This document shows, piece after piece, positions 23,325 through 61,765 of a DNA stretch of 64,000 nucleotides (position 1 is the first letter of the stretch; every line of letters starts with the position of its first letter). Below the pieces are notes generated by a model. It saw nothing but the letters and a program-made list of their open reading frames with translations, ran no database searches and was not told the origin of the DNA. The stretch spans positions 1 to 64,000 of the forward strand of contig QPGO01000048.1 in the NCBI GenBank assembly GCA_008632985.1. Direction: 5' to 3'. This DNA comes from Psammoneis japonica (taxonomy: Eukaryota). The position numbers were made by a program, and so were the translations under genes.

Positions 23325-24139
23325 GCCCATAAATTTCTTTTCAATTCAATAGCATTTCATTTCCACCTTTGTAGATAATGTATGATATGCACATCATTTG
23401 GTTTCCAAGCATACAGTAGTTCCCGTCGAGCTAGCTGCACGTTCGGATACAATTAAAGCCACTTTCATACCACTCTCTAAATGCCTCGAGCTCTATTCTA
23501 TTGCAGAGGCGAGACAGTTGTAGGTGTTCCTCTGCTGCATTGTCGAAGGCTCTCTCCAGCTATAGAGGGCCCTGTAGCCATGGTAGTAGAAGTAGATAGC
23601 TCTAGAGAGTGACACCGGTGGTGCTACCGTAGAGGGAGGAGAACCTACAATAATTGGGCACTCTCGAAAGGCTGGTCGTTTCAGGCAGAGGTGGGAGCAA
23701 ATAAATGCCCATGTGGATTTGCGCAGCGGGGTGATTCTTTTTTCAGAGAAAAGGACCGCACCCAACCTTCTCACTCGGCGAGGAATCATCGCGGCGGCGT
23801 CTGGGAGTGTACATGCCTCTCTTAGAAGTGCACAGGTGGACCCCTGGGAAAAAGCGGGGCCCACCCGCTAAAAATCTTAAGCCCTCTCATGGCCAGCAGC
23901 TGGCTGCTCTAGAGAAGAAGTACAGTGTGGCAGGGCCCCACCAGTGGAGGGCCTCCACTCTAGAGTTGTCGGGGGGTGTCCTCTTGAGAGAGAGGGATGA
24001 TGTGCTGACGTCTCCTTGATCCTTGTCTTGGGACGTCTCCAGCTGCTGGCAGAAGAATCATCAGCAGCTGGCGCCAGGGCAGCGATGGTGGAATCCACCT
24101 GTGTCTCCCCCCTGACCTGCCCATGAAGTGTCACGCACC

Positions 24140-27100
24140 CCCATGTTTCTGATGTGTTGTGTGGCATTGACAATTGCACTGGACATTCCAGAGCCGTTGT
24201 GATGGGCTTTGCTGCTGATGATTGTGACATCCAGTTGCCTTGGTCTCTTCTCACAACTTTGTTGTCACTGAGGTCTTTGTTTGTTTGACCTTGCACTGCA
24301 GCAATTGCGGTCAAAAGGAGAATGGATTGAGGCTGTGAGACTCATTCCAACAAGTTGACAAAGCACGAGATGCAAGAATCATGTGCAAGAGATGTGCAGT
24401 TTGGGCTGTTGATCCCCATGAACAAGAGAGAGTCAATGATGCGCAAACTTTGTGGACAAGATTTGATGAGTGATTTGAGTGCAACAGTTGGAGAACAAAG
24501 CAGAGTCCCTGGAAAGGGCCATTGAGGAGCAACCGTGCTTTTTGCTCTGTCTTTCACAGTGGGTGGGTCAACATTCAACAGCTTTCCTTGCCCGCGGTGT
24601 GAGATGTGTGCTCAAGTGGGGTGCTTGACAGCTGACAACAGTCTTGCCAAGATCATCAACCATGCAAGCAACAAGAAGTCCTTCACTGACAAGGGTGGCA
24701 GCAAGAAGCAAAGCAAAATGAGGAGGGGTGCTTCTTCTTGTTCTTTTTTCTTCTTTTTCTTCTTCTCAAGCCTCAAGAAAACACAATCATGGCAGCAGCA
24801 CTGGGGTCAATGCAGAGGCCAGATGCCCAGCACATGCCAGCTGTGATGGCAAGTGGAAGCATTGCATTGCAAACCCAGAGAGTCAGAACTGTCAACCAAG
24901 GTCAGGCCATGGTGGCCACAGAAGCAGTTGTGATGAGTCCACCGCAGCTTCCAAGGCTGAGGTTCAGAAGGTCAAAGAGGTTGTGGCAACCACCAAGACT
25001 GAGAGTGCAGTGGCTGCAACAGACAAGGTTAAGGTGGTGGCCATGGCAGCCATGGCCATGACAGCCATGGTGTTCTGATGAGAGAACTCTCAAGGAGGTG
25101 GACCCTGTGCTGTGGAAATCTGGCTGGAGCAGCTTTTCCTCTTGGTGGCTGATGATGTGTCCCAGTGCATGGATGAGTTGGTTGTTGTTGCAGTGTGTGT
25201 GTCATGCTGGTCCTGGAGAATTTGACATGCTGGGGCTGGAAGCAAGCAATGCACAAGACACAAATTTGCTCACACAGTGCACAGGTTCTGCTTGGAATGT
25301 CTCATTTTTATGGATCTTGGTCATTGTCAAAGAACAGCAGCATGACAATCATTGGAGCTGTCTCCACATGAAAAAAGAAATGAGGACAAAGCTGTGCAGT
25401 TGTCATGCATTGTGGGTTGTTGTTCTTGTGGATGGCAACAAAACGGCAGAGAAAAAAATCATGTTGTTGCAGCCATTGCTTGGAGAATGTGAGTGCCCGG
25501 GTGGAGACTGCTGTTGGAAGATTTTGCTCCTGCCTTTGAGCATGGTGTTGATGGCAAGAACAATGTGCTGGTGGATTGTTTCTCTTGATTGCCTTGCATG
25601 GATCCCACTGTGGAAGAGAGGCATGCTCCAAACAAGGGCAAGTTGATGGACCTCAAGGTGATCAACACAACACTGCCATGCTGCCACACAAAGAGGATGA
25701 AAGGCCCAACAAGCAAACTGTGTCCTGTTTCTCTCCTTTTCATGAAGAATCTTCTCACTTTTGCTCCTCTTGTGTGGATGATCATGAGTTGTTTGAGTCA
25801 ACAATTCCCACAACTGCCCAACTCTTGACAAGATGCCAAAACCTGCTGCAATCCAACAAATCCAAGAGCATGAATTTGTTGACAACAAATTGACTGACAT
25901 GTGTTGGTGTGGTGACCAAAGTGTTTTGTGGTTGAACGTGTGAGTCAGCATCCTGGGATCTGTTGTCATGCTCAGCTGGCTGATTTGCCAGCTCTGTGGA
26001 AAATTTCATTCCTGCTGCTTTGCTGGCCACCTGACTGGGTGCAGCGGCACTGTCATGATGTGTTGGGACAAACAGGAGTGCATCAAATGCACTCTGCTGT
26101 TGGCTGTTGGCACACTGTTTTGTCATCCTGTCTTGCACTGATGTTGTGAAGAGCTTCATTGCCCTGATTGCCAGCACTTGAAAACATCAGGTCCTGGTTG
26201 TGGGAACCCTCTGAGCATGAAGCATCATCGCTGCCCTGACTGAAGCTGCTGCAGATCTCACTGGCCCCAGGAAGATTGAAGTCCAAGGTCAAGAGACATT
26301 GAGTTCTGTGCATTGACATGCATTGATGTGGTTTCCACTGTTGAGGAACTCACCCAGATTGAAAACAAGACTCCTTGCCACATTGCACAGCAGCTTGGAA
26401 ATTGTTGGTTGTCTCTCTTGTCCAAATCATTGCATTCATGACAATGGCAGTGGGTTTGCAGGTGAAGATCATCTGCTGCTTTTGAAATGTGCTGGTGTTG
26501 ATGATGAACCTGATGCTTTGTGCAGTCTGCAGGCCAACGCAGTGTGTGAATGTGCACATCAAACTGTGGGTGACATCTTGTGCACATTGTCTCACACTTG
26601 TCTTCTGCAGAATGTTGGGCAAGCAGCAGGCCAGCCAGCTGACAACCCATTGGGGTGACTGCAATGCATGCCATGTGGTGCACAGCACCCCATGCTCTCA
26701 AAACATCTTCAAGAGCAATGGCACTCCAATGTGATGCAATTTTAAACCTGCCAGCTCTGACCACTGTTCAAGAATGTCATCAGGCTCTTGTCAAAACAAA
26801 CCTGTGCTGAGAAAAAACTTGCAATTTTGCAGTCAGCAGTCAAACACTTCTCAAGGTGTCAATGATCCTGCCAAGCTTGAGCCACAAGATCATGAGCCAC
26901 ACCCTGCAGTGCAAGCACACACCAATGGGGCTGTTGTGGTCCAATGAGCACCTCATGCAGCATGCAGTGGAGTGGTGGACTGACACTCAGTGCATCGTGC
27001 CACATCACATCTGAGACCAAGGGCATTTTCCCCAACATCTGGGTTTCCCTTTGCTCTGTGCACAGAATTTGAATTTGAGTTCTTGAAATTTTTGAATCCC

Positions 27101-27212
27101 ACATGATCTGATGATGTGTGGATGGCAATGACTGATTGCAACCTTGTCACCTTGGTCTCTCCTTGCAACTTCATTGCCGCTGAGGTCTGTGTCTTGTTTG
27201 ACCTTGCACTCC
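24140..27212 (+). mobile_element. Degenerate Ty3/Gypsy LTR retrotransposon relic
   Basis: gag knuckle-like CPAH...WKHCIANP (~24820), protease-like MDLG (~25310), RT-like FAGH.DWVQ (~26020), integrase CIHDNGSGF...QANAVCECAHQTVGDIL (26323-26658) in PR-RT-IN order, and degenerate direct repeats at ~24237-24297 and ~27149-27210. Confidence 0.7.
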
Positions 27213-27799
27213 ACATGCAACTGACTGGAGACAGATGGGTGGGCTGGACCAGGGCCAGACAAAGTTGAGGTTTGGGCTGATCACTTCCAAAATGATTGAG
27301 TTTGCAAGAGAGCGATCTTTGCACATGAAACAGTGTCCAACAACTTTTGAAGGCTTCTGCATCATGCAAACAACACACAAAACATCTAAATTTTGCATTG
27401 CCTCAGAAGTCATTTTTTGGTTGGAAAATGACTGCACCTTCTGACCAATGGACTGGCTGTTTTTTCATTGCTTTTGTCATTGATCTTAAGAACAATTGAG
27501 TGCCAGTCTCTTCATGTCTTCAATTGTTCACCATCCTTGGTGGACATGCAAGATTCATCAACAGCAAGCGTGCTGCCATCAAAACTTCAAATCACAGTCA
27601 AGACAGAATCATCAAGAAAAAACCACCCAACCCTTGTTTCAATGCCTGACTCTGCAACTGTGGTGCAACACAACCCCAGATTTCCACTGCATTGTTGAGA
27701 ATTGGAACGGTGTGTTGCACGGTTGTCTGATGTGCTGCTGTGCTGCCTGTCTCACATTGACATTTTCATCTGCAGCAGGAGGAACCTGAGAACCTCCTT

Positions 27800-29300
27800 C
27801 TTGGAGCACTCTCATGCTGCACCCAGAATTGCTGAGAAACTTGCTCAATGCTGTGGCATTCCCTTTTGTTTTCCTGCCATCAAGTTTCCTCCTCAGACAC
27901 TGTTTTTTTTTCCTTTGGTGACTCCAGACAGAGCCACACCTGCCCCCACAATCCCAGCTCTCTCTGAAGTCAAAGTTGTTCACAATCAGGCTCTCAGCTG
28001 CCCTCCACTGGAGCTTGCAGAGGTGGCTGTGTGGTTCATGCCATTTTGCACAAAACTGGGAGCTGGGTCATTTGCATTCTCTTGTGGCTGATTCTCAGAG
28101 CTTTTTTTCAAGAACAAAACCCATCACAGAGACAGGAAAGTTGGCAATGCATGTCTCTTTCTTTGGAGCCAACTTGAGACTGACATCTCCCTGTTTTGTC
28201 CCTTTTCTCATGCCTCAAGATGGTGGGCTCAACTCATGAAACACAGGCTGAGCTGACCCAACAACCATCAATCCTCATCAACTCCAAATCTTCCAAAGAA
28301 ACACCTTTCTTCAGCTCAATTCCCCCAGAAACCAACAGGGCTGCTGGCCTGCTTTTCTCAACATCTTCATTGCAGATTGTTGCTTAGAGGGCAGCAATGG
28401 CAAAGCTTGAGAGGTGGGCCCACATGTCTGGATTTGTTGCCAGCTTGCTTGACATGGGCATCTGGACAGGCTGCAAACAAAATGTCCTCAGGCAGCTCAT
28501 TCTGAAATTTCACATGCTCCCACCTTGCATTTTGCCTCCTTTTCTGCTTGAGGTTGCTTGCGTAGATCACAATGTTGTGGGGGCTGGATGTGGCTGTACA
28601 AGAGATTTTGAGCATGTGTCCCCTCTTGCACCTTCTTTCAGAGCTTCACTTTGGCATTTCCCATGGGGTCAATGAGGTGGTCACATGCCAAGCACACTTT
28701 GGCAAAATGCTTGTTGCCTTCTCCATGTGCTGGGTCACCCAGCATGGCTTTTGCATTCCTGGCTGCTTTTTGCTTTTGTGGTGCCAGCATTGGCAACCAG
28801 CATGGAGGGTGCTAGAACAAGGAGCTTCATTGGGGGGTCACAAGGGCTCATCTTTCAAGAAGATTGTGGCAACTCTTGTGTCAAGAGAGCATCAAGGACA
28901 AGGGTGCACATGGGCTGCTGCTTGCATTTTGTTGAAAAAAATGTGAGGCGCTTCACGCAGATTTGGTTGCATGTGTTCATTCACTGAAAAAAGTGTGAAG
29001 CTGCTTTTTCATGTTTTTGTTCAAAGCTTTCCAAGTGATCAATGCAGATGTTGATGTTGGCTGAATGACATTGTTCAAATGTCCACAATGCTTTTCAAAA
29101 ACAAGTCAGCAATGCACCACAAGATGTGGGCAATGAGAGCCATGTGCTTTCATTTTTTCCTTTGTCAGACCATCTGCCTCACAGTTCCATTTTGACACTG
29201 ACACTGTAATTTACAAGCAGGTGCACACTTGGTCTTTTCCTTGCCAGCACCATGGCTGTTGACAAAGCAAGAAGCAAGAACAAGCAGCAGCCAAGACTCA
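27800..29300 (-). mobile_element. Degenerate Pif1-like SF1 helicase remnant (Helitron-like element)
   Basis: Fragmented motifs: FVNSHGAGK (Walker A-like, ~29250), IVD..MSF (~29080), PPLKLCHCCPL (~28400), KLQWR..ESLIV...W (~28000), VALSGV (VALSRV-like, ~27930). Confidence 0.55.
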
Positions 29301-31419
29301 CAAGAAGAGACACCAAGTCCAAAGAAGGCAAAAGAAGGAAAAGTGGCCTGCATGCCAGAGAAAAAGAGCCCTCCTCTTTGTGTTCAAACAATGGCCCTCA
29401 CAGTGTCACTCAGCCAGCTTGTGTTTGTGGACAAGGAAACAAGATTTGCTTTCTGGGGGCAGCTGAACAAGGGTGTGAGAAACAGACACAGCTGGTGGGT
29501 TGAGAGAAGGATGAAGATCTAAAGGAATTGGTTGGTTGTCCTGACTTGTCTGACCACAAGTGATTGTCTGACCACAATTGATGAGAACAATGCCAAGCCA
29601 CATCTTCAACTTCATCAGTTTGCATGTCACAAGTTGGGCAACAAGCCACAAAAAGACAACAAAAGTGCAAGACAGAGTGCTTTGTTGTTGATGATGAATT
29701 TGTGTTTGACATTGACATGTGCACTTTCTGCTCATTGCACTGGACCACTTGTGAGCAGCAAACAAGTGCCATTGTCAAGTTGACCAGAGAGGTGCATGAT
29801 GAAGATGATGCTGACCCAGCTCTTGTGCATGTGCCACCACACCATGTCTTGAGTTTGCTGGCAACAAACTTCCAAAGGAAGCCCAAGAGCATTGCAGGTG
29901 TCCTTCTCTCTAAGACTGACAAATGCAACAACATTCATCACAATTCTGGCATCTGCTGGCTCATTGTTGCTCTGTGCTTGCAAAGACAGTGAAACACAGC
30001 CATCCACCAGCAAAGCATCCACTCCAATTTGCACTGAAAAGTTCATCAATCAGTGCATTTGGGGAGCCTGCAGTGGCAATGCTGTGCCATGCAGTGTGCC
30101 AGCGGAGAGCAGAGAGTGAGCAAAAATTGCACTGGCAAATCACAAAACTTGCCAACAGGGCAGATGTTTTTCAGGCAGCTGCTGGCTGGCCCACCTGCCT
30201 GGCCTGGCTGGAGATGCCCCCACCCTGGCAGCTTCTCAAACAGCATGGGCAAAGCTGCATGATGACAACACTCAAGTGGACAGCAATTCCTTGAGTGAGT
30301 CTCCCTCTTGTGGCTCATGACTTTGACTTTGTGAGCTGCCTGCACAAGAGAAGTTTGCAAGCTGCACAGTGCAGCTTTTCATTGCCCTCCCTGTGCAGCT
30401 CACAACTTTGTGCACTGCACAAAGGAAGTTCACAAGCTGCGTGATGCAATGTTTCATGATGGAAGCACCCAACCTTGCTTGCTCAAAACAACACAAGAAA
30501 CAGACCATGACAGCAGCAGCAACAGCCAATGCCAGATTGTGCCACCAAACCTTTTCCCACCAAGAACACCAATGCATCACATGCCACAGCATTTTGCTCT
30601 GACAAATGCATCCATGAAAAGAGAGGTGAGACAAGTCAAAAATGGACGAAACTTCTTCTTTGACTTTGCTGTCATTCCTGCTTAAATCTCACAACTTTAA
30701 CAGCTGATGCTGATTTGCCACCAAACTTTTCAGGCCAACAATGCCAACATGTGACATGCTTTGTTGCACTCAGAAAAGTGCACACAAGAAAAGAGAGGTG
30801 AGAAAGAAGTCCAAAAATGGACAAACACTCCTTCCTCATGCTGAGATTTTGCAGACATTCACACTCTTTTTTCACAACTGTTGCATTTCAATTTGTTTGT
30901 TCTCAACAAATTGAAGAGTGCAGACCATTGCACAGATGATTGAGACTCGTTGTGATTTGTGATGCCAAGTGTTGGGCAGAGTTGGTTGGGTTGGCAAGCA
31001 GCCCACAGCAGGGTGAGGCAGGCTGGAGATGATGACGATGAGCAAAAGAGGATCAGGGGGGCAACTCAAGTGTGTGGAGCACTCATCATGGGAATCTGCA
31101 ATCTGCCACTTTTACAAAGGTCCAGGAACAACTGGCTGATGAGGTTGCTGTTGTCCTCTCTAAACATTTGAGTGACTGCCTGGGTTGGCTGACTTTTGAC
31201 TGCAGCGGCACCTGTGCAATTTCTTTCTGCAAAGATGTTCATGTGGCTTGAGATCCCCCACCTCTGAACATTGAGACAGCCGACAAGAGCCAAGGGGTTG
31301 CTCTCTGGCAAGGCATTGATTGATGCTTCTAAGGAAGGGAGTGTTCTTGATTCAGCAGACCCAAAATCTCAGTTGCAACAAGGCTTGGCTTCACTCAAAA
31401 GCCAGTGCATGTGAATTGA

Positions 31420-31662
31420 CTGCTGCTGGCATGACTGCTGCAACCACTGCCATTCTGACTGCTGCCATTGCAACTGCTGCTGTTGCAACTGCTGCCATTT
31501 TGACTGCTGCTGTTGCAACTGCTGCAGTTTGCAACTGGCACTGTTGTGAGCACTGCCATTTTGACTGCGTTGCAATTGCTGCCATTGCAGCCATTGCCAT
31601 TGTGGCAACCACGACAATTGCAACTGCCATTGTTGTGACTGCTGCCATTGTGACTGCCACTG
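31420..31662. repeat. Degenerate minisatellite of (G/T)CAACTGCTGCCATT / TGACTGCTGCCATT-like units
   Basis: Recurrent actgctgccatt / actgctgctgtt units visible in the sequence. Confidence 0.8.
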
Positions 31663-32049
31663 TTTTTAGACTTTTGTTGTTGCATTTGCCATCATTGGTG
31701 GGGCTGCAACTGTGGCTGTTCAGACCCTGCTGCTGTTGAAAAAGCTCAATTGTGCTCTTGCTTTTTGTGTCAATTGGCAATTTTCTCCACATCTTGTTTG
31801 TTCTTGAAATCCCATTTTGCCTGACTGCACCCTTCCTCTGTTTCCAGCACCCTCACACAAATGCTCCTCTTTTGCTTCACTGACAAGCAACTCTGCCATC
31901 CTTGCTTGCCATGACTTGCTTGAACATTTGCTGGTGAGCCTGGGGCATTTTGCTTTCATGCCAACTCTTCTTTGGCATCACACTTGTGGCCCCAAACAGG
32001 GTTCCTTGTCCTTTGATGTGGTCTGATCTTCTTCTGCCAGAGCCCTTTC

Positions 32050-33210
32050 TGCTGCCACCACTGCTGGTTCCACCCATGGCATGCTGGGGTGACAGGTGCT
32101 GAACAGTGAGTTCTTTAGATGTCAGGGGTCCATGGCAAAGGAGGAGGTGGGTCAACAGGGATGTGTGGTGGGAGGGTGGCATGGAGTGCACTGAGTGATG
32201 GAGAGAAGAAAGATGAGCCAAGAGTGTGGACAGACAGTTGGGAGGAAGAGTTGTCAGTGACAGTTGGGTGTCAAAGAAGGAGAGTTTGGCATGCAGAGAG
32301 GTGGTTCAAGAGAATGACACTGAAGTTGAGGCTGAGGATTTGTGAAGCCCAAAGTTGGGGGGTTGCACGGTGTGATGGGAGGTGCCAAAGTGGTCTGGTG
32401 ACACTTGCTTCTGGGTGATGTTGGAGTGGGTGAGGAAGTTGGAGGGGGGTGGGAGCGAGCATTTGAAGGCAGAAAAGGAAGCTTGGGAGTTGGAGAGGGA
32501 AGATGGATCAGCCCAAGGTGGCTTGGGAGGGAGAGGAGGGATGCCGGAGGAGGATGTTGTGGTTTGTGGTTGAGACACCAAAAAAGAAGATGTGGAAGTG
32601 GCGTCCAGGCCAATGCCACCTGGGTGATCAAAGGTGAAAGGGAGGAGGAAAAGTCCTGCTTGATTGACAGTGTCAATGATGTCAGAGCAGCAGGCGGATG
32701 ATGCAGTGCGACCAATGAGCTTGTCCCGTGTGCTGCTGAGGCGAGCCTTGTTTGACAGGTTTTCAGGGGCAGGCAAACCAGGCGCAGGAGGTGGGGGAGC
32801 TGGCAGTGCAGCAACATCAATGGCTGGAAATTGGTGGCTTGATGGGGCTTCCGACGGTGCAGAACCAAGCACAAATTGAGCACCAATGTTGGCGGGGTGT
32901 TCCAAGGGGTGGTCGTCCACTGACAAGAAGACCGGTGGGGTCTGGATGAACTTGTTGTCGAGAGTGGCACAGACCACCAAGGGGGGCCAGTGTTTCAATG
33001 ATGGTGCAGATGATGGTGTCATGGATGTGGTTTGAAAAAGGGCTCTTGTGCATTTTGGGGCAGGTGAAAGCACGGTCTCCGCAAGGGGCGGTCTGGGCAG
33101 GTGTGACCGAGTGGACAGTCGTGTTGGAGCAGATCAGGAGAAACAATGGGGAGCCACAGCTTGAGGAGAAGGAGAAGTGTGAACAGGGTTGGTGGGAGTT
33201 GGTTTGAGGC
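32050..33210 (-). mobile_element. 3' fragment of an RLE-type (CRE-like) non-LTR retrotransposon
   Basis: CCHC-like PCGDRAFTC.K.HK...SNHIHD, followed by HPANIG (RPAD-like), AIDV and LLPFTFDHPGGIG restriction-like endonuclease motifs. Confidence 0.6.
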
Positions 33211-33528
33211 ATGTAGTCGGGAGAGAGAGTAAAGGCATGAGGATCGTTCCAACACTTTGTTATTTTGGCGAGTTGACGACGGCTCCTCTCGCTCGCTTTT
33301 TATTTGTTCTTCTTCCGCACCACTTAGGTACAGCTTACAGACCTCCCAGTCATTGGGAGTGCGCGGCTGCCGCGGCTTTATCGATCGCTTTTGGCTTTTC
33401 CCCCTCCCCGCCCGCCCCGCGGCCGCGGCCGCGCTCATTCATACATCGGTGTTGCCGAACTTCCAACATTTATACAAAACAAACAACACACCACTCCACT
33501 CAGCAAACAGCGACAAGCAACCACAGAG

Positions 33529-39196: not shown

Positions 39197-40945
39197 TTAT
39201 GAGCCAAGTTCCTCGGTGAGAAAATATGAGATTGCTTGATTCCACCAATTTGGTAGGGGCGCTTCAACGTCAATGTCATATTCAGTGATGCACAATCATG
39301 AGGTATGCAGCAAGAATCGCTGCTGCTCACCATCCACCGGCAAAGCGGCAACATGGGCCAACGAGTCTCTGTCGTCGCTTGTACTTGAATAGTCGGTGTC
39401 AAAGAGAATGGGGAATCCCAATCCTTCGGCACAGTGAACTCACACTTGATGTTTCCTTCCAGCACGAGTTTCGATTCGAAGACACACAGGGCAGAATCAC
39501 TGCATTCTTCAACTGCAGCAAAGGTAGACTGGGGTGTGCCGACTTCCCGTGCACTGGAATGTCAATCTCCCCATGAAAAGGGATTTCCTTTGCACTGGCA
39601 GCTGCCACAGTCAAGCAGCTCTTTTTTGCTTTGCAAAAAAAAAGAATTCAGCAACAAGCTTTGCATTCATTTCATCAGTTTTTGCAAGTGCAGTGCAGCC
39701 AGGTGTCCTGCGATCAATTCTGTGAACAAGGCCCCTTCTTTCATGATTGAGTGCTGAAAGCGGGACATTGAAATGATCCAGGAAATCCTCCAAAGATGCA
39801 TCAAAGCATGTCCTGGATTGCTCTCACCCTTTCTTTAAACTGGAAGATCTTTGCAAAGAAAGAATTCAGCAACAAGCTTTGCATGCATTTCATCGGTTTT
39901 GGCAAGTGCAGTGCAGCCAGATGTCCTGCGATCAATTCTGTGAACAATGCCTCTTTCTTCATGATTGAGTGTTGAAAGCAGGACATTGAAATGATCCAGG
40001 GCATCCTCCAAAGATGCGTCAAAGCATGTCCTGGATTGCTCGCACCCTTTCTTTGAACTGGAAGATTGCATTCTTCCAGCCGAAGTCTTGCATCTCCTGT
40101 TGAAGCATGCCACACCAGGCAGTTTGATGCAACCACTGCACTCCCAGATCAATGCAAAAATTGAAAATCAAGGCCACACAAGTCTCAAAGCAGTTCTTCC
40201 ACATCCTTGACTTGTGCTGCTCAGCCCTTGCATTGAGTTGCAGCCCTTGCATGATGGCATTTTGACCCTCCTTTCTTCTTGATCAGTTTTCCATCATTTT
40301 CCAGCTTTCTCCAAAACTGGGTTGGCTTGTGACACAGTGAGGGAGCCATCAGATGCAAGGCACAAAGCTGAGCACACCAGCAACAAAACACCATGACATC
40401 AGGGCATGTTTCAATGGATTTGGACATGTCCCAAGCCAGCAGATGAGCTCCCCGGATGCAGCATCGTCAGCCAGACAACCAGACCCTGTGAAAGCACGCA
40501 AAATTCCAGACAGCTCAGGCTTGTTGTTTTCTGCTGCATCAAGTGATGTGCATTGACCAGGTCTTTGGGTGAAAGTTCAAGTGGCAATGTGTTGCAACAA
40601 ATCCAGAACAGCGTCAGTCTCACCAGCCATGGTGTGAACTTTCTTGGCATGGTCAGATGGGTCATTCATCAAAACAAGCAAACACAAGGGCTTGCTGCTG
40701 CTGCTGCTGCTGCCACTGTGCAAAGCACTTTCACAACCCAAAGGCTGGTCCATGGTGCACTCAGAGATGTCTGCATGATGACAAACCAACTGCTTTGAAA
40801 TGTCTTCCTTTCCAGGCACATTTGTGCTGCCTCTGACACCATGCCCCAATGCTCAACAGCTGACAATGTTCAAGCATCAACATTGAAAAATGGGGCCAGA
40901 GCAGCTGACAACCATTGACATCATCTCTGTCTCAATCTTCATCAT
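39197..40945 (-). pseudogene. RluA/RluD-family pseudouridine synthase pseudogene with internal tandem duplication
   Basis: KLPGVACF (motif I), GIVHRIDRRTSGC (motif II, twice), ETRAGRKHQV*VHCAEGLGFPILFD (motif III), RFLLHTS*L...VEAPLP.WW; in-frame stops and frameshifts; 5' end approximate. Confidence 0.85.
39641..40066. repeat. ~218-bp-period tandem duplication
   Basis: aaagaattcagcaacaagctttgca...aactggaagat occurs at 39641-39848 and again at 39859-40066. Confidence 0.95.
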
Positions 40946-41039
40946 GGGATTCATTTGTTGAGAGACCATGCCCGATGAGCGCTCACAGGGGGGGAAAGCA
41001 GGTGCCTTCTTCATTTGTTTTCATGTCCAGCTGTGCCAG

Positions 41040-41998
41040 CTTTTCATGCCATCATGTTGTGGTGCTGAGTGTTGCTTTCAGTGTTTGATTGTGTGGTGTT
41101 TGGTGTGTGGCACACAGGGCCAGAATTGTGCCCCCATGCAGGCCAACTTAGCAAGGACTTGCACATTTCAGAGCAGCAGAACAAAATCCAAAACTTGCTG
41201 CTCTCACTGTGCCTGTGCTCATGGCAGCCTGAGCCACAATTGGCAGCAACCTCTGTCATTCAGTTGGCAGCAACCTTCATCAATTGGTGGCCACAGGCTC
41301 AGGCACTCAACCTCCCTCTCAGCTTTCAGTGACACCCCAATCTCAACAATCTCAACGAAGGGAACCTCCATCAGCTGGCAGTGACATCTCTGTCAACTGG
41401 CAGCAACCTTCATCAATTGGTGCAAACAGCACCATTTGTGCCACACAATGGGTGACAACCATCAACATCACCTCTGCCTCAACCTCAATGTCCCAAAACT
41501 CATTTGCTCAAGGACCGCGCCTCTGCCAACCTCTTGGCACATCCCTCTCTCATGCAGCTGCCAGGGGTCTCTGGTTTGTGTGTTCTCAGGTGAAGTGGCC
41601 TTTCCAACTTGCTTCTATCCACCCCCTCTTTGTGCTGTCACTTTTGTCATGCTGAGTGTTGCTTTGAGTGTTTGATTGTGTGGTGGGGTCCAGTGCATGT
41701 GTGGTGTGCATCAAGCAGGGCTGTTGTCATGCCCACATGGACCAATTCAATGAGGACTTGCACATTTCAAAAAACACAAAATCCAAAACACCATTCTCAC
41801 CATGCCTGCACTCTTGGCAGCCTGAGTCAATTGGCAGCAGTGACCTCCATGAATTGGAGCGATGCAAGTGACACCAGCACTTGTGCCATGCAACAGGCAA
41901 CAACTTCCTCCTCAATCTCAATCCTAAAACTTGTCTGCCAAGGGACTATGCCTGCCGAGCTCTTGGCTTCCATCTCTCTAGCAGCTGCCAGGGCTCTC
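41040..41998. repeat. Degenerate nested direct repeats, TpA/CpG-depleted
   Basis: gctgagtgttgcttt.agtgtttgattgtgtggtg at ~41064 and ~41651; tggcagcaaccttcatcaattggtg at ~41265 and ~41398; cagctgccaggg at ~41555 and ~41982. Confidence 0.8.
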
Positions 41999-42340
41999 TA
42001 TTTTTTGTGTTCTCTCATTGTTTCTAGTAGAGAAAACGTGGATTTCACTTCGTTTGGAATCCCTGATGTCCACACAAGATTAGCAATCGCGACCTACCAT
42101 CCATCACGGGATTGACATAAATGAGAACGGCGTCCTTAGAACTACTGATTATATTGACAGGCAGTTAAGATGTGTTTTTTATGTTCTTTGCCGCAAGATC
42201 CATACAAAGCAAGGAATCAGACGTATGCTCAAGTCCACCACTACACTGCAATACCAGCACAACAGGCGTATGCTGTCGTCTTCAAGCCGTTGCGCGGAGT
42301 ATGACAAATATACGGCACGCCTTCTACCAGGCTCTTTCAA

Positions 42341-43817
42341 CTACGGATCATCTACTTCTGGATTGCTTTTCGGTTTCACTCGTACGACGACGTCGCTGTG
42401 CGATGGCAACGCAGTCGCACCTCCTGCGTTCTTAACAATTCCTTGTTGAGCACAAAGTTCCACAAAATCCTCATGGCTGGCGAGATCAGCCCAACGACTT
42501 TCTAAGGTCCGTGGATGTCGACCGGGGAAGGCCCGAGATATTTGGATCCAGTCCAAGCTTTGGGAGTCCCTGACTGCAAGCAACAATCTTTCATCTTCCT
42601 CGGGAGCAAAGGGCTTCGTCGATAGGTCTGGGTCAAGGGAGCGATTCCATTTTTCTGACACAGATTTTGACGCTCGATTAGGAAAGTGAACCTGATGCAA
42701 TAAGTAGAAAATGACAGAATGAGATCTAAGTCCGAAAGTAAGCAACGAAACAGTGGACAACAGAGACTCTCGTATTTTCTTACAGCAGCCTTGACAAGCG
42801 GGGAGGGCTCATCGCGATACACTTTCATACAAAGAACAAGCTTCCTTTCTTCGTCCTTCGACCAAACATCATGAATATAGTTGGGATTAACAAGTGATGC
42901 ATGCGCCCTTGATAAAATCTGTCTTGGGACTTGTCCGGTAGCATTCGAAGTGACATTTGAGCAGCTGCATGGAGATTAAAGACCCAGCCTGGACCCATTG
43001 CAGACGCGTACTTAAACAGCATTTCATCCTCTTCAGGAGACCACTGTGATGCACGAGATCGTTTCGACTGGTAGTTGGAAAAGCACTGCCACGTGGTTCG
43101 ATTAGTGTCAAGAGAGGAAGCAACATCGTCCCAGCGAACAGCGCCGTTTTGCGTTTCTTGATATTGTATGTTCTCCAGAATCATATTCGACTCTTGCGTC
43201 GTGAGGGGAGTAGAAGTAGATGTCGAGTGTAAGAATTTCAGGCGACATTCCGATCCAGTACGAGTGTGCGCCGAGCCACCTTTAGCCCTAATTGTCTCAT
43301 TTAATATGTCCGCCACGCGTTCAAAGTTAACTTCTTGAAGGGAAGCAGAATCCGCGCAAGCCGCCTGAAGTTGAGACACGATACCACAAACACTTTCTAA
43401 TTCACCCTTTGACCACGGTGGAGATTTACTGAATAACACTTTTCCCTCTTCCAAGCTTCGTCTTTTGTTGGTATCCTCATTGTGGGGAGGAATGCTCCCG
43501 TCAGGGTCGACGAAGAATCTTTTGGTCCACTTTCGATACGGATCGTAGTTCCACTTCTTCTTCAAATAGCTCGTATGCCCCCTACTTGACGAGGACTCGT
43601 TACGCGTCCGCCTTGGCTGTTTTAGAAGTTTTTCCGGCTCTTGCGAAGCATCTTCGAGCTTTTCCCACGTCACCGCCAACTGAGCCGCAACACGAGAGGC
43701 AACGCGACGGTTTTCGGCCTTGTGTCGTGCCAATCGTTTCAGTTCACAAAGAATCTTTGCTTGAAACTGACGATTGGACTCGAGCGCTTTTTCAATCGAA
43801 ATAGCCGTCTCTTCCAT
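42341..43817 (-). CDS. Myb-repeat protein (SNAPC4-like); intron and apparent frameshift near 42915
   Basis: PWSKGE, WDDVASSL.TNRT.WQC, WSPEEDEML, FAPEEDERLL...WIQIS..FPGR. Confidence 0.75.
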
Positions 43818-44159
43818 GGCGAGGATCGTACCGGTATCAACACAACACGAAACCTTTGCCTTGGGAGCGGCGGCGCATTGCTTGTTGCTTGCTTGCTCGC
43901 TTGCAAGCTTGACCAAAGAAGAACAGTGCGAACAGCCGCCGATCGCCGATCGAAGGTTCCTTGTGCGCGGCCGCGCGGCCGGGCGGGTGTGTAGGGGCAA
44001 TGACGTCATCATTATTTAGCCACATTCGTTCGTGTCACGAGTCAACGAGAACGCGAACGTGACAAAATGACGCGCACAAATCCAAAATCTTTGCCAATGG
44101 CAGCCGATCCCCGCCTGCGTACGGTACGATAGCCATTGTCACCTCGACACCATATAACA

Positions 44160-45902
44160 ATGTTGTCGCATCGATCACTGCGTCACAAGGTATTCCAGGA
44201 ACTGAAATTTGGTATACGAAGAAGCAGTGTCTCTAGTTTGCGTCCTGTTGTGTCCGCTACGAAACGATTGGGTGGAGTAGTATTATGCGAACCGCCCTGC
44301 CGATCACAGTCGACTGCTACTTTTCCGGTAGACATTGAACAAGTGCATATCGGGAAAGAGGGTGAAGTATTTCAAGCTAAGCTTGATGATGAAGGCTCCG
44401 GCGTTGAACTGACATTCCCAATGAGCAGGGGCGAGTCTGTCACATCGTATTTTCACGCCCCGTGGCTCTGGTCGAACAACCCATCCTTTGTTCATCCCAC
44501 CTCCGGGCAACGATTGAAGACTCCAGGTCGATATCCTGGCACCAAAATTGCCGCAGTTGATTTCTTGGCTGGTGAAGACGAGCTCAAATCTTCTGGAGCA
44601 ACATTACCGATCCCATTACCACCGAAGGGCTGCGTGCATCCAGTGGGAACTGTTTTCAAGCAACCGAACAGTAATGACGATGAATCACAGCTGTTAATTC
44701 GTGTCGAATGGGAACCGACTAGTAACGAGCAGGACCTTTTCGTCTCATATTATTCTGTCGACTGGCTTCGGCAGTGGAGATATGACGACGAGGCTTTACA
44801 ACAAAGACAATGTCTCTCTCAGGTTACTGAAGAGCATTGCATCAGACGAAGAAGAAATGAACAGGATGGGCTTCTTCACGTCGACTTCAGCGAGTTAGCT
44901 ATCGATGATTGTGACGATACAAGGTTTGAGATATTACAGGTACTGTAACAACTCGAAGCAATGATACGCTCTTCTCCCTTTCTTCCACACAGCAATTTCG
45001 CTTTCTAACTCTCATTCGATACGTTTCGTGCTTTTCAGGCAATTTTCCGAGATGGCGCCGCGATTGTCAAGAACGCTCCAGCGATTCCACCATGTATCGA
45101 TTCTTCCGTTGAACTCGTGGGTCGTAAATTGGGCGGGACACTTTCACACGGGGCTTTGTATGGCGACGTCTTTCATGTCCAATCCTTTCCTGATGCCCAC
45201 AACTTGGCTTATACCTCGGTACCGCTACAACCACATCAAGACCTTGCTTATTATGAAAGCATGCCGGGATTGCAGTTGCTGCATTGTGTTGAGAATAGTG
45301 GGGTCGATGGCGGGGAGAGTGTTTTGATAGACGCAATGGCAGCAGCAAATCGTTTCCGACAAGTCGCTCCACAGTACTTTGAAATATTGATGACGTGTCC
45401 TGCAACCTTTGTAAAGCAGCGAGAGGGCGCTGATATGGTGTACCGTCGACCGCATATTGCTGTGGATGCCATGGATGGCGAAATTGTGAGCGTGTCCTGG
45501 AGCCCCCCATTTGAAGGACCAACAAGCCTACCGGCTCATTTGGTTGAGGCATATTATGAAGCTTACGCTGCGTTTGAACTCATGTTGGATAATTCCCTAC
45601 CTGAAAACTGCCAGGCTAGTGTGATCCCTGAAGCTCTCAGTTCCGTGTTACAGGATTACGCACATGAACACACTTGGGAGCGTCAGCTGGAGCCCGGCGA
45701 GATTCTTGTTTTCAACAATCGTAGATTGCTACATGGTCGCCGCGGATTCTCAGTGAATGAGGGTGCCGGCCACGGTCGTCACCTCGCGGGTGCGTACACC
45801 AACATAGATGACACCTTGAAAGAGTATAGATGCCTCCGAAGAAAAAGGAACGATTGTCGCCCAGTGCCAAATGCGGGGAATGGGAGTATCATGGTGCTGT
45901 GA
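44160..45902 (+). CDS. TauD/gamma-butyrobetaine dioxygenase-like 2OG-Fe(II) enzyme (1 intron)
   Basis: NLAYTSVPLQPHQDLAYYES.PGLQLLHC, GGESVLID, FNNRRLLHGRRGF. Confidence 0.88.
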
Positions 45903-46074
45903 CAAGCACTTTGCGAGTCGTCGTTCTTGCATTTCCAGGAGCAAGTAACAGGGCAGTAGAACAAGTATTTAAAAAAGAGAATCTGTCAAGCCTCAATTGT
46001 GTTGAGCTCAAATCCCACAGAATGAAAATAATGAAGTGAAACAGATTTGCGTTAGCTAGCAATTAGCGAATTTT

Positions 46075-46746
46075 TTATATTTCATCGGGAACATCTTGCA
46101 AAAGGCCGAAGAACTCATCAACTAGCTCCAGCTCTTGCTTATAAATGACAAGGAAGCTCTTGGCATCTTGTTTGCTCACAGGGAGATCGCCTGCCTGGGC
46201 GTACTTCTGAATAAGCTTGACATTTTCTAGAGCCTTCTTTTTCTTCTCTGGATCCGAAATGCCGTTCGCGATGGCCTTCATGTCTTCGCCCACCTGGTAA
46301 AGTCTGCGAAGAAAGCCTCCGATGTTATCCCATTCTTGGGCATCGATTTCACTTGCATGCTCAGTCACTCGTTTTCCTACAGCCTGCGAACAAATGATAC
46401 AACAGCGAATGCAATGGCTTGTTAGGTGTGAGCTGACCCCTCAATTTTCGCCTTGGTAACTGCGGGATCACCAAACGTCAACGATACGCACCATCAGATC
46501 TGATTTAATATTGTAGGCCCTACTGAACTGCGCGGCCCCCTTGGGAAGTGTATTCCCGTCAGACACATCGGCACAGGAAGGTTCAACTGCGACAAAAGAT
46601 GCAGCTGTTGCCAGGCCAGAGAGGAATTGACGCCTTCCAATTCCGTCAGTTGTTGTGAAATCGCCATTTGCGGGACCAAATGAAAATGATAACGCACACG
46701 CGGCCATGGCCGAGAGGAAGAACACCGAGGCGCAGCACGTTCGCAT
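46075..46746 (-). CDS. Plastid thylakoid-lumen helical protein (PsbQ-like), 1 intron
   Basis: Signal peptide + F, twin-Arg RRQFL, A-x-A-like cleavage site, helical mature part. Confidence 0.6.
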
Positions 46747-47071
46747 GATGGAATATTCGAAGGAGACGTCAGCCGAAAGAACTTGCGCTAGGAAGCAATG
46801 CCCAGCTCGAGAAAGTCAACTCTACTTGAAAATTAAAAGTGAGCTAACAGGAACACTGAAGCTGCGAAACGACTAAGTCCCCGTGCGAATAACTCGTTAC
46901 GTATTCACTACAACAGCGCAAGAAGTTATCCGGTGTAGTGCGTGATGAGGAGTGAGTCAGAGAGGGAAATGCTGAAAATAAATCTCCAAAACGAGGAGCA
47001 AAATCGCGCCAGAACGCGCATAGTTTTCCCGCCAAATTGTGTGCGCCTTGCGGCCGCAAGCAACATGACAC

Positions 47072-48217
47072 ATGACAACAAATTCTGTTGAATGTTGTCT
47101 GCTTTTTGTGTTGAGTTTACGTTCTAGCGGGTGTGGAAATGAGATCAGTACAGATACAGTGCATCGTCATCTATTTGTTCGCCAGAGTTGCAGCTGATGT
47201 CTCAAGTTCGACGAAAGCGCGTGCAATGCAAATGGAATTGGCGTTCGGCATGTTTGGAGCAAGGAGACTCCCCAAGATCCCGTCGTCTCCCTCCGGCCGG
47301 TAAGCATATCGGAATTCAAACTTGTTATCTATTATTTTCTAGCTTCGACTCCTGATTCAACATCCGTCTAATGAGCGATATTCGCAGTGACAGACAGGCT
47401 GTTGATTCCGTAAAGGTTGCCATTTCCTCCCCGAAAGACCCTGCTTTCCCGCTCATAGAGTGTGAATTTCCACCTCTTCAGGCGTTGAACAAACTCGGAG
47501 ATGGATCGCTTCGATCCGCACTTGAAGTTGACCAGGCAAGTCTTAGGGCGCAGATTACTTTCTGGATGAGATCAGCTCTCTTTGCACTCTACTTGCACAC
47601 ATATTTCATAGCCAGCCATTTTTGTACTCACAGAAACACAGCTTACGCTCTTGCCATTCGAATGACAGGCCAACCTCGCCTTTGCAGCAAAGCTTTTACA
47701 GTCGATAGCTCCATTGCCACAAATTGGCCCCAAAACATGGCTGTTGATCAGCTCCACAGCATCTGCGAACTTCCTTGCCAAAGCGAAGCAAAAACTTAGA
47801 ACCAGCAACGTGCAATCTCTCAAGGATGGCCTCCCTGACCTTGGAGCTAAGGATGTATGTGTTTTTCTCTCTCCCTCTTCAAGGAGTGATTATATAGCTG
47901 CTCAGGATGTTGCTTCTGAGGGAAATGCAGCAGTGATATTGAATGGCTTTGCAAAAGATGCGAAAAGCGTTCCAACGAGAGCGACCATGGCTTATTTTGA
48001 GAAGCCACTCACGTACAACTCTCAAGTCGCTGGATACCTATTGCGTGCCTTTCCTTCAGAATGGACTGTGGTCGACGCAGTTACCCAAGAAGTTCTTGGT
48101 ACTTTTGGTGATGAGAAGATATTGGTTAGGGGCACCAACACTCCAGATCTCCGCGAGGCCGGGCGACTAGTTCAGAAATCAGTCGACGAAAGGGCTATTC
48201 GTGCAAGGCAAGGTTAA
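47072..48217 (+). CDS. DUF1995-like plastid protein (multi-exon)
   Basis: Signal peptide; LIECEFPPL, VILNG, GYLLRAFPSEW motifs. Confidence 0.7.
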
Positions 48218-48442
48218 TCCAGACTCACTGTCATGCAGCATGGATTGTCACAAGTTTCTCCCACCAAACTACTATTGTAGAGCTTGGTCGTATGTAGATG
48301 AAACCAAGGCTTGTGGTGTGGTACCGTACAGACTACTTTCTAAACTCTTCTTAGGGAAATTTACGGTTCGAAAGCTAGCGTACTTTGAATACGAGTAGTA
48401 TGGTAGCGGGGTGTGGCACTCTCTTTCTGCCAAACCTTTGCG

Positions 48443-49324
48443 TTACCGTCCACAACCCACCGACATTCGAGTATCGGCACCTGTCGTTGGGTTTTCGCCC
48501 TTAAGAGATGGATTCTTGCACAGATTTCTAATATCAAAGTCGCCCAAATACGCTTCAGTGAAGTCTGCATTTTCTACATCAGCGTCTTCAAAGCTCGTCG
48601 CCGTCAGGACTGCGTTAGTGAAGATTGTTCCCCGCAAACTTGAGCCTTTAAAACTCGCTCTGTCCACAACGGCATTTGTGAAGTCCGCCCCATCAAAGTT
48701 GCTATCTGCAATCCAATGTTATGAGTGTGAGCGAACGAACGAAAGACGACGATCAATGATTTCTCCAGTGATCTTACCATGAAGGTACCCCTTGCTGAAA
48801 TATGACTCGATAAACTTTGCATTAGACACATCCGTCTTAGACATGATGACACCGGAAAGATCAAAGCCGTCAGCCTTCGCACCAGAAAGCTGGCATTCTC
48901 GAAGATCGTAAAGTTTGTCCCTAGCAGCATTCGCCTGGCCCATTTTACTGCTATTTAGAACACAGCGATTTTTATCGCTCACGTCAATCGGTGGTAGCTT
49001 GAATTCCTTGGTTTGCCCTACGCTCACCGGTGAATCAGAATTCGACAAACAATGAGCAATTACCATCGAGATCGTGACAGCATTTCAGGAACTACAAGAG
49101 GATGACTCACCATCAGCGAACGCGGGGAGAGGACTGGCCAAAATAGCACATGATACAGCTGCTGCTGCAGCGGCTCTGCCGATTACCGCCAGAGCGTCAT
49201 TCGAATGGTTTTCTGCATACAACGAAGTTGGTGTGCGTTGAGGACTCCTCGGTAAAAATGCATCAGCGCCTCCATTCAGGACTGCGAACAACACGCTCAG
49301 GGTGGATAAGAGACGTGGCATCAT
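48443..49324 (-). CDS. Thylakoid lumenal 17.4 kDa pentapeptide-repeat protein (TL17-like)
   Basis: ADAF plastid-targeting motif, PAFA cleavage site, LPPID..DKNRC...GQANA..DKLYDLR.C, pentapeptide repeats, C-terminal LCKNP...GC. Confidence 0.88.
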
Positions 49325-50268
49325 CTTCAGGCAGTTTGATCCAGACAACTTCCCTTTAATGCTTGTGTAATAGTCGCAATGAATGTGACAACGTCTTGTG
49401 GTGACGGATGACGACGACCGATCGACTTGCCACAGTAGCTTGTATCGAATGATGAGATGGTCGATGGTTGTCAGTTTGAAAAGATCGAATTCTACGTGAT
49501 CCCCAGTACAAATCCTACGCTAATCCAAATCTCAAAGAAAGATCGCGGGCAAAAACACGTCACTGAGATTGACTCGTCCGATTAAATATGCATGGGCTAA
49601 TTCGCGATAAGATCTCGATCTCTCTACTGACTCTACAGTAGCTAGTAGCTCTGTCCTACTCTCTACCGGTAGTAGAGTAGAGAGTAGTAGAGAATACCTA
49701 GAAGTACTTAGTAGAGGGCTAGTAGCGGTACGGTAAAGTAGCTAGAGAGAGAGCAATGGTGCATTCCTCCGGATCAGGTGCAACATTGTAGAGAGTACTT
49801 CTAGTAGCTAGCGAGTCGAGTAGGCCCTACTCTCCTCGAGCACGAAGGGAGGCGGTTCTGCCATCACGGCTATTCTTTCGTAGCCCTCTAGGGACTAGGC
49901 CCCAGGCCAAAATGCTTTAGAATCCTCTCTATGGTAAGAAGCGAGAGGCATGTATGCACATCAGTAAATGATCTGGATCAGCGACTTATAAAATGACACA
50001 GTAGTGCTCGTGAATGCCACACGTCACCGAACACATCATCTTGTCACCCCCCAGTCGCGACATGCCATAATTGCAAAGTACGAAGTAACAGATAAACTGT
50101 AGAGTACTTTAAAAAACGACTGTTCGTTACGGTATTGCGGAAGAGGTTGCACTCGAACAGAAAAGTCATGGCGATGCACGTGTCTTCCACAAGAAGGTCG
50201 AAACGGCCGGTTACAATCTTTCGGACCGTACAATTACCTGCCGAGAATGAAGAGAATTCTTGATCATA

Positions 50269-50945
50269 TCAATTCATGGTAGAAATAGAATATGGCCCCG
50301 GCTTGACAAGTCCCTTCTTGTAAAGCGAAGACACAGCTTTTTTGAATGACGATTTGCTAACACCCGGGAATTCAGCTGCGATTTCCTTTGGTGCTGACTT
50401 GTCTCCCACGGGAAGTGTACCATCTTCACTCCATTCCAATTTCTCCAGTATCATTTCTCCTACTTGCTTGGCTTTTGCCTTACCACCCGGAACCCTCAGA
50501 GAAATATCTAGCTTCCCATCATCACGGATACGTTCGATGTATGCGCGAAGAACCTCTCCATGCACAACGTCGACGTTGCCTCGAACTTCCCTAAATGCCT
50601 AATTTCTTGCTGCAACACCAATCCATTTCCTAACGGCGGAGCTGACTCTGGAATTAGATCTTCGGGTGAATGGCCAATGCCAATAACATCAACTGATGCA
50701 CCCAGCGGCCCGAAAGATGCAACCTCGACTTGAATCTTCTGACCGTATCGAAACGGGATTTCGTCACCTCTTGAGTTAGCCTTCGAATAGAGAGGTTCCG
50801 TTTTAATGGCTCTTGGGTCCAGAAAGCTTCGGTCTAGCCTTCGTGATTGTAGCCCGACGAAGGCAAAAGCGGGGGCAGTTATTTTGCGTGATGAAGCCAA
50901 AACAAGTGAGAAGGAAGTCAGTGTGAGTGTTCGAAGTTGCAGCAT
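50269..50945 (-). CDS. S1 RNA-binding / CvfB(YitL)-like winged-helix protein; 1-nt frameshift near 50595
   Basis: YIERIRDDGKLDISLR (S1) and LPVGDKS.P.EI...FPGVSK..FKKAV..LYKKG (CvfB WH). Confidence 0.8.
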
Positions 50946-51347
50946 TTTGATATAATGAAGTGGAAGGTGCTTGAATCGATCGGAATACGGTGCTATGACG
51001 ACTCGTCCAATGTTAGACGATAACATTGAAAGCAACCTTCAACCGACAGAAACAATTTGCCGGGTCCAGTCGTCCCCCACGCCGCAGTGTGCAGATGATG
51101 CGTTCTGGAGAATTCTGGAGCTCGGGCCTGCTCGAGCGAAAACGGCGGCAGTTCTGTTGGCTACCGTAAAGGCTACGTAGGAATTGGTAATAATTATTGA
51201 AAGTACTAAGTCCCTACGAATGTTCTACATACGAATTCATGGTACTCTCTTTACAAATGTACACAAAAAGTGATAGTGATTGAGAATTGTGGCAACGGTC
51301 ACGACACCACAAAAATCTCTTCGAAAACCGCGCTCGTTTTCGATCAC

Positions 51348-51639
51348 AACTCGTCGTCTCGCACGATGTGTTGTTGTTTGCCAAGCCGGAAGCCGTAATC
51401 TCCGAGGATGGCTCGCCCTTCCTCTGGATTGAGAGCTCGCTCTTGTTTGGTATTCCACAACTCATTTTGCTTGATGGTGTGTTGTCTCTCTTTTTCAACT
51501 CGTCGTCTCGCACGAGGTGTTGTTGTTCGCCAAGCCGGAATGCCGCGATACCCAAGGATGGCTCGCCCTTCCTCTGGTTCTAATTGCCTGCTCTTGTTTG
51601 GTGTTCCACAACTCATTTTGCTTGATGGCGTGTTGTCTC
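51348..51639. repeat. ~149-bp-period tandem duplication
   Basis: aactcgtcgtctcgcacga...gtgttgtctc at 51348-51488 and 51497-51639. Confidence 0.95.
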
Positions 51640-55880: not shown

Positions 55881-55954
55881 CGCTTCCTCTGCGAAACCCA
55901 CAAGTTAAGTCAATCGATCTTAAGCTCTCGATTCTACTTCACTCTGCTGTCACC

Positions 55955-61722: not shown

Positions 61723-61765
61723 GACGTTTTCGAGTCATCATTCCACCCGACATTGTTGAAGGGAG

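Follow-up and report, generated by a model that had tools for sequence, protein, structure and literature searches.

Context-dependent loss of TpA from a copia retrotransposon and other repeat-bearing DNA in a probable diatom contig

The first description of TpA-directed hypermutation of invading DNA dates from 2026 and concerns a single chlorarachniophyte. According to the main text of that preprint (Mettrop et al., bioRxiv 10.64898/2026.01.13.699255), mutation-accumulation lines of Bigelowiella natans show de novo TpA hypermutation, with 231 mutations published, confined to an integrated giant virus and virophage at rates about 1000-fold above the background. The B. natans genome further holds 124 TpA-depleted clusters, and the long-term signature, TpA depletion with enrichment of CpA and TpG, includes reverse-transcriptase and DDE-endonuclease genes (10.64898/2026.01.13.699255). 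The authors propose an ADAT2-type adenine deaminase, citing activity of the amphioxus and trypanosome enzymes on DNA, and the words "trinucleotide", "context", "flanking" and "CpG" do not occur in the preprint's main text (10.64898/2026.01.13.699255). Here, we describe a comparable signature in 64,000 nucleotides of Psammoneis japonica DNA (contig QPGO01000048.1 of assembly GCA_008632985.1, positions 1 to 64,000; hereafter the window), where TpA is depleted in three tracts, one of which covers the 5′ part of a Ty1/copia long terminal repeat (LTR) retrotransposon.

The window consists of gene-dense eukaryotic DNA of 48% GC, in which CpG is at expectation and TA moderately under-represented (rho 0.4–0.9); the 1996 TA outside the depleted tracts, at a density of 41.5 TA/kb, form our background set. 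The three tracts (islands 1 to 3; Table 1), all of which carry repeats, have a TA rho of 0.00–0.10 and a CA/TG rho of 1.4–2.2, with CA and TG each approximately doubled. They result from local hypermutation of TpA to CpA or TpG (A:T to G:C), which acts on DNA after integration, on both strands, in tracts of 2.6–9.3 kb on repeat-bearing DNA.

The clearest record of this process is the LTR pair. LTRs are identical at integration, and the two LTRs of the copia element, aligned over 350 bp, now differ at nine positions, all of them transitions with no transversion. Eight of the nine are A:T to G:C changes at TpA, and at all eight the TA sits in the 3′ LTR (14 TA, against 6 in the 5′ LTR). Six of these sites had been listed in a first-pass annotation of this DNA and were found exactly as described there (TAA to CAA at 55745, 55754 and 55791; TTAT or TTAC to TTG at 55767 and 55798; TTAA to TCAA at 55692); the remaining differences are ATAT to ATGT at 55543, CTAG to CCAG at 55676 and a CpG to TpG change (ACG to ATG) at 55757. 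Of the 14 TA sites in the LTR pair 8 differ, whereas of the 322 other positions just 1 does; the mutation therefore acts after integration, and because the eight products comprise three TG and five CA, both strands are hit.

The direction of change follows from the composition of the element, in which the TA-poor half (rho 0.02–0.10) is the odd one out by comparison with the other half (0.57–0.74), the background (0.4–0.9) and 73 metagenomic relatives (0.43–0.86); TA has therefore been converted to CA or TG, the opposite of repeat-induced point mutation (RIP). The metagenomic relatives served as a control and composition baseline only, and no TA-free tract was present among the 73 loci (lowest 1-kb rho 0.15), nor did their repeat pairs carry an excess of TA-type changes (37 of 320 differences in the LTR-like repeats of 17 relatives). 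Contigs from sequencing runs of one sample (X1, X2; three runs) were aligned to positions 41751–61750. Those from other copies of the element had T or A at a window C or G (C>T 434, G>A 414) more often than the reverse (A>G 352, T>C 364), a surplus of 132 that approximates the number of TA lost from the copia element; among the 40 listed of 2138 such differences, 11 inside the element were ordinary copy differences and not of the TA type.

The tract does not respect the boundaries of the element. Depth in run X1 was 1155–2277 over the copia element compared with about 57 for single-copy genes, which places the family at approximately 20–40 times single copy, and the bin means (48.4 for 54424–55090; 1174 for 55091–55757) suggest that the DNA is single copy up to the LTR. 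Depletion begins 665 bp upstream, in this apparently single-copy DNA, and fades mid-element: TA per 250 bp is 0–2 until 58.5 kb (with 10 TA left in the core at 55991–58500), 5–8 over 58.5–59.75 kb, and 12–14 on the plateau past 59.75 kb.

Which TA sites survive depends on their flanks. The first-pass annotation had proposed that adenine followed by A resists the mutator, with 5′-TAB-3′ (B, any base but A) as the target, since about 17 of some 20 survivors in an island at 25025 to 32120 lay in TTA or TAA. The count is exactly 17 of 20 (5 in TTAA, 12 one-sided) against 774 of 1996 (38.8%) in the background (binomial p = 3.0e-5), and TTAA alone accounts for 5 of the 20 compared with 4.0% (p = 9e-4); the interval given corresponds to the span between the first and last surviving TA of island 1 (25030 and 32116), and depletion extends over about 2 kb more than this. 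Across the 51 survivors pooled from the three islands, however, the rule is wider than 5′-TAB-3′: flank selectivity exists and protection by a following A is borne out, but G is protective as well and the second base matters. Flanks of the form YTAR (Y, pyrimidine; R, purine) were found at 33 of 51 survivors versus 17.0% of the background (p = 4e-14), with 14/20, 4/8 and 15/23 in islands 1, 2 and 3. Read on each strand, the frequencies of A, G, C and T immediately 3′ of the A are 44%, 37%, 13% and 6% among survivors and 21%, 21%, 29% and 28% in the background, so that TAG makes up 38 of the 102 surviving half-sites (37%, with 21% expected).

These contexts were analyzed with a Poisson survival model in which the hazard of each adenine is set by its 3′ neighbor, with exposures set separately for each zone and the background supplying the ancestral contexts, fitted to 84 surviving TA in six zones including the gradient zone of the copia element. 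Relative hazards by the base 3′ of A were 1 for T, 0.70 for C, 0.24 for G and 0.17 for A. Equal hazards were rejected (likelihood-ratio test [LRT] 63, p = 1e-13), as was a model in which only A differs, by comparison with the four-rate model (LRT 39.8, p = 2e-9). Equality of A and G was not rejected (p = 0.35), equality of G and C was (p = 1e-5), and a purine/pyrimidine model fitted as well as the full four-rate model (p = 0.15). Both equal rates and the A-only model remained rejected (LRT 85.8 and 71, respectively) when the unmutated half of the copia element was taken as reference.

Including the second flanking base improves the model (LRT 27.6, 3 df, p = 5e-6), and positions +3 to +5 showed no effect. 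A occupies +2 in 27 of the 38 surviving half-sites with G at +1 (31% expected) and in 22 of the 45 with A at +1. Setting the hazard of the TA-Y half-site at 1, that of TA-R-B was 0.47 and that of TA-R-A 0.014, and equality of the two purine classes was rejected (p = 9e-7). In the saturated zones, survivors over expected numbers ran from 10/12.2 for TYTARA (both halves R-A) through 16/46.3 (R-A with R-B), 13/98.9 (R-A with Y) and 7/50.9 (both R-B) to 4/233.7 (R-B with Y) and 1/201.8 for RTAY (both Y), figures that, calculated from the class counts, are better described by half-site hazards that add than by ones that multiply. In terms of the duplex, RTAY is removed almost completely, sites with Y..R flanks are protected, and TYTARA is essentially immune.

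Survivors alone cannot distinguish protection of the adjacent adenine from protection across the strands, and the direction of change is needed for this. At four of four LTR sites with a purine on one side and a pyrimidine on the other, the strand hit was the one whose A precedes a pyrimidine. In islands 1 and 2 together, YTGY exceeded RTGR by +182 ± 52 with the genic baseline (gains 558, expected losses 571), and the contrast of A against non-A was +141 ± 44; where island 3 lies within the element, the YTGY-over-RTGR contrast was +43 ± 25 with the retroelement baseline. Such contrasts in product composition are informative only when pooled as purine versus pyrimidine, as single four-base classes did not balance the expected losses. 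According to the first-pass annotation, the hit falls on the strand that lacks an A after the target A; this holds at all five informative LTR sites and is not established beyond them. Between the copies of the tandem duplication in island 2, TTAA (39836) faces TTGA (40055) once, and the other differences are mostly CG versus CA; TAA to TGA can therefore occur, if TA is ancestral there. A hexamer contrast for the strand protected by the second flank position gave +23.5 ± 20.7, of at most 27. The composition contrasts are mixed, and overall a same-strand reading, with 5′-T-A-Y-3′ as the preferred target, is only fairly probable.

Several results weigh against this reading or limit the flank rule itself. 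Survivors are few (51, rising to 84 when the gradient zone is included), the models were picked after seeing the data, and the expected ancestral contexts come from the genic background of the window rather than from the islands' own ancestors. With the plateau of the element as reference, the order of the A and G hazards flips (0.25 versus 0.06), and for that reason the claim is limited to A and G both being protective. Regarding the strand, the contrast in islands 1 and 2 is confounded by CpG decay with a TCG bias, which could supply about 60–70, roughly a third. The purine-versus-pyrimidine contrast in island 3 was only +19 ± 25 with the genic baseline, the contrast of A against non-A there was −5 ± 21 (maximum 34), and in 1.5 kb of CpG-retaining flanks with strong G/C skew the contrast was reversed (−30 ± 16). 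Two LTR hits, at 55692 and 55754, fell on the TAAA or TAGA half. The survivor model treats this half as immune, and the effect of the second position may therefore operate across strands; under two-position rates, neither the same-strand nor the cross-strand reading fits the six informative LTR sites well, the two being about equally poor. Codon-based inference yielded three informative events, one for and two against, with two look-alikes in the unmutated control. This approach (120 homologues; 2 events in the saturated part at 70% conservation, and 8 in the mutated parts at 50% with 2 in the control) was rejected as evidence either way. The best relative of the 1407-residue pol frame is 60% identical.

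Loss of CpG accompanies the loss of TpA in the older islands. The tracts at 23971–32367 and 39391–42024 have lost about 90% of their CpG to TpG or CpA, and the young island 3 keeps its CpG. Within island 1, CpG is nearly gone over the first of these (37 CG in 8397 bp) and partly retained at the right end (32368–33213), where TA is lost. The base before C has a mild effect on CpG survival (hazard 1 for T, 0.61 for A, 0.68 for C and 0.54 for G; p = 0.026), so that the TpA and CpG processes both favor a target preceded by T. Most simply, the CpG loss would reflect deamination of 5-methylcytosine on silenced repeats.

Taken together, we favor context-dependent TpA hypermutation by a sequence-reading enzyme, to which we assign a probability of about 0.7. 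In this scheme, TpA is converted to CpA or TpG in local tracts after integration and on both strands; each flank adds to the hazard of the site, probably by governing the adjoining adenine, so that 5′-T-A-Y-3′ would be preferred and an A with a purine after it (R-A most of all) spared. The resistance of A followed by A is a correct part of the footprint and not the whole, and older tracts have additionally lost CpG, most simply by 5-methylcytosine deamination on silenced repeats. The first-pass suggestion of an enzyme is reasonable, since chemistry alone would hardly yield a footprint about six bases wide. The leading candidate would be an adenine deaminase of the TadA/ADAT2 type acting on DNA, as proposed for B. 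natans; no gene for such an enzyme (HxE-PCxxC motif) was found in the 64-kb window.

Other explanations account for parts of these data. A narrower rule, which reserves protection for an A immediately 3′ of the target A and treats 5′-TAC, TAG and TAT as equal targets, agrees with the 17 of 20 island 1 survivors in TTA or TAA, the five of five LTR sites and the +141 ± 44 contrast in islands 1 and 2, yet is improbable given the rejection of that model above, a G that protects as A does and differs from C, the excess of TAG among surviving half-sites and the effect of the second position. Still less can be said for chance, or for TA regenerated by later C-to-T change: while there are only 51 sites, and the abundant CA and TG of the islands could give rise to TA, Y..R flanks occur at 65% of survivors as opposed to 23.8% of the islands' CA/TG, which shows that the survivors are not regenerated TA, the enrichment recurs in all three islands, and TYTARA stands at background density, which makes this explanation hardly tenable. 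The modified base could alternatively be thymine, for example as 5-hydroxymethyluracil at TpA on silenced DNA, mispairing with G to give T to C. A-to-G change on one strand is T-to-C change on the other in sequence, all our counts are symmetric in this regard, and the rule can be restated as a T preceded by a purine being hit and a T preceded by T-Y being spared. In dinoflagellate DNA, 5-hydroxymethyluracil favors TpA and TpC. We consider the thymine explanation unlikely, although the sequence record that it would leave is the same. In B. natans, the only experimental system, adenine deamination is proposed from the presence of an ADAT2 homologue, and the chemistry is not settled there either.

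Two further explanations invoke RNA editing and sequencing error. A-to-I editing of double-stranded retroelement RNA by an ADAR-type enzyme, fixed by reverse transcription, would produce clustered A-to-G changes with a 5′ U/T preference on a retroelement, and the copia family is abundant in run X2, which contains spliced contigs. Edits made before integration would be common to both LTRs, yet eight TA sites differ between them; the tract reaches 665 bp into single-copy flank and stops mid-element, island 2 holds a host pseudouridine-synthase fragment, and in contigs of run X2 the asymmetry runs against editing, with C>T (71) and G>A (79) outnumbering A>G (25) and T>C (29). The ADAR hot spot is 5′-UAG (PMC10661471, Table 1), whereas TAG is protected here with a hazard of 0.24, and we give this explanation almost no credence. 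The second explanation is an artefact of base calling or consensus at modified bases (5-methylcytosine in CpG, or a TpA modification) in a long-read assembly. Modified motifs are a source of transition errors in nanopore consensus sequences. A symmetric modification would, however, give conflicting strand calls rather than clean CA or TG; independent X1 contigs match 41751–42178 with no differences, and among the differences listed none at full X1 depth appears to fall within 51992–56420, which includes the TA-depleted flank, although differences at that depth are listed for other parts of the window. The same signature is seen with Illumina reads in B. natans (10.64898/2026.01.13.699255). An artefact is very improbable.

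The mutation also has consequences for annotation. No stop codon can be created by conversion of TA to CA or TG: the sole source of TGA is TAA, and the process takes away TAA and TAG. Accordingly, the density of TAA plus TAG per kb per strand is 1.8 in island 1 compared with 16.3 in the background, and long frames stay open through the saturated tract of the copia element (1407 and 346 residues). A frame of 351 residues across the flank and LTR (54679–55734) has no Pfam match, and both it and the 346-residue frame may merely reflect the loss of stops and not be genes. Because long frames persist, gene finders will call false genes in such tracts.

Coordinates of the islands and their features are collected in Table 1. 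In island 1, no Pfam domain was found in six frames (stops read as X) or in 56 open frames, and diverged repeats lie at 30521–30696/30699–30879, 31416–31740 and 24219–24300/27133–27213. At its right end, G exceeds C with a skew of +0.41 over 32001–33000, and composition baselines are unreliable there. Repeats of island 2 include 41040–41256/41626–41850, and its right end (41751–42178) is matched by one X1 contig at a single-copy depth of 60.6. At the left edge of this island, pieces matching PF00849 at 39430–40164 on the minus strand, in two frames, span the 218-bp tandem duplication; a profile search gave the second piece at 39835–40164 (−) with E 1.7e-6. Their position indicates a host-type gene fragment inside the mutated tract.

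Table 1. Islands depleted in TA and the features associated with them in the window
Feature	Positions	Strand	Size	Description
Island 1	23962-33213		9252 bp	20 TA left vs ~384 expected
Island 2	39391-42024		2634 bp	TA- and CpG-depleted; 8 TA, 25 CG left
Pseudouridine synthase (PF00849) gene fragment	39430-39754	-		E 1.4e-5, profile positions 33-151 of 152
Tandem duplication in island 2	39637-39849 + 39855-40067			92% identical
Island 3	54866-58621			23 TA left; CpG normal (225 CG)
Mutated flank upstream of retrotransposon	54866-55530		665 bp	3 TA vs ~27 expected; CpG kept
Ty1/copia LTR retrotransposon	55531-62112	+		LTRs 55531-55880, 61763-62112
Mutated 5′ part of copia element	55531-58621			TA rho 0.02-0.10; CpG kept
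Copia open frame	55955-56995		346 aa	no Pfam match
Copia pol frame	57499-61722		1407 aa	RVT_2, gag_pre-integrs, SH3_retrovirus domains
Gradient zone in copia element	58622-59750			TA 5-8 per 250 bp

Elsewhere in the window, a short repeat at 51089–52422 occurs at approximately 80–90 times single-copy depth (4516–5018 versus ~57), contains an internal tandem pair (51347–51488/51496–51639) and is not depleted in TA in the window copy. Over the ordinary genes at 42295–49236, 23 single-base differences separate the window from single-copy X1 contigs (depth ~57–61), which fits allelic or strain variation. Run X2 has spliced contigs, with skips of 72 and 93 nt with CT..AC ends in a gene at 48.3–49.4 kb. 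On the retroelement (55531–61750), the same run showed 12 skips of 70–114 nt, 6 of them with CT..AC ends; these correspond to GT..AG introns antisense to the element, and may be real splicing or alignment of diverged copies.

Among described systems, RIP in ascomycete fungi resembles the process seen here in its tract-wise, dinucleotide-specific transitions on repeats, its spill into unique neighboring sequence and its skewed island. RIP is set off by sequence duplication in the sexual phase, and repeats are present in all three islands here. RIP converts CpA to TpA, whereas here TpA becomes CpA or TpG, GC is not lowered, TAA and TAG are removed, stops are never created and frames stay open. 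TadA and the ADAT2-ADAT3 enzyme have a tRNA loop as their natural substrate, in which A34 follows the invariant U33; the resulting U-A-C resembles the T-A-Y preferred here, and since the eukaryotic enzyme additionally acts on anticodons in which A34 is followed by a G or an A, the immunity of TARA is not predicted. The context listed for deamination of A34 by TadA and ADAT2 is 5′-ACG (PMC10661471, Table 1). ADAR shares A-to-G change, a preferred U/T 5′ of the target, clustering and association with repeats, and differs both in its 5′-UAG hot spot (PMC10661471) and in that the action here is on integrated DNA. The footprint is thus a testable property, which argues against an ADAR-like enzyme (TAG being spared) and is compatible with a TadA/ADAT2-like one (T-A-Y), and RTAY and TYTARA can serve biochemical work as positive and negative substrates.

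The closest counterpart is the hypermutation of B. natans, which likewise involves almost only A:T to G:C change, only at TpA, with TpG and CpA as products on the two strands and in local tracts (10.64898/2026.01.13.699255). The changes in the window have the same character, with eight of nine LTR differences being A:T to G:C at TpA and with local tracts poor in TpA and rich in CpA and TpG. They differ in their host, most likely a diatom and not a chlorarachniophyte; in their targets, which here comprise a copia element plus flanking DNA, two non-coding islands that bear repeats, and a fragment of a host gene; and in that depletion is saturated (rho 0.02–0.06) and CpG loss accompanies the older tracts. 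The host assignment follows from a BMT5-like protein of the window, for which no match exceeded 56% identity and all named matches among the best 120 come from diatoms (Chaetoceros, Thalassiosira, Seminavis, Pseudo-nitzschia, Cyclotella, Mediolabrus). We found no report of TpA hypermutation in diatoms in the literature searched, including the available text of two diatom transposon papers (PMC2806351; 10.1101/2025.10.24.684338). It is conceivable, though we hold it only tentatively and as rather doubtful, that diatoms and chlorarachniophytes share an old genome-defense enzyme, a "reverse RIP" that reads about six base pairs around TpA, hits RTAY, spares TYTARA and erases TA from silenced mobile DNA without new stops; if this were true, the footprint would be its fingerprint, recoverable from the B. 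natans mutations and usable to identify the enzyme. As far as we have searched, the footprint is not in print, and the process is of the same kind as the B. natans hypermutation in a new host group. A diatom case would extend the signature to a major group of marine algae, and from viruses to transposons.

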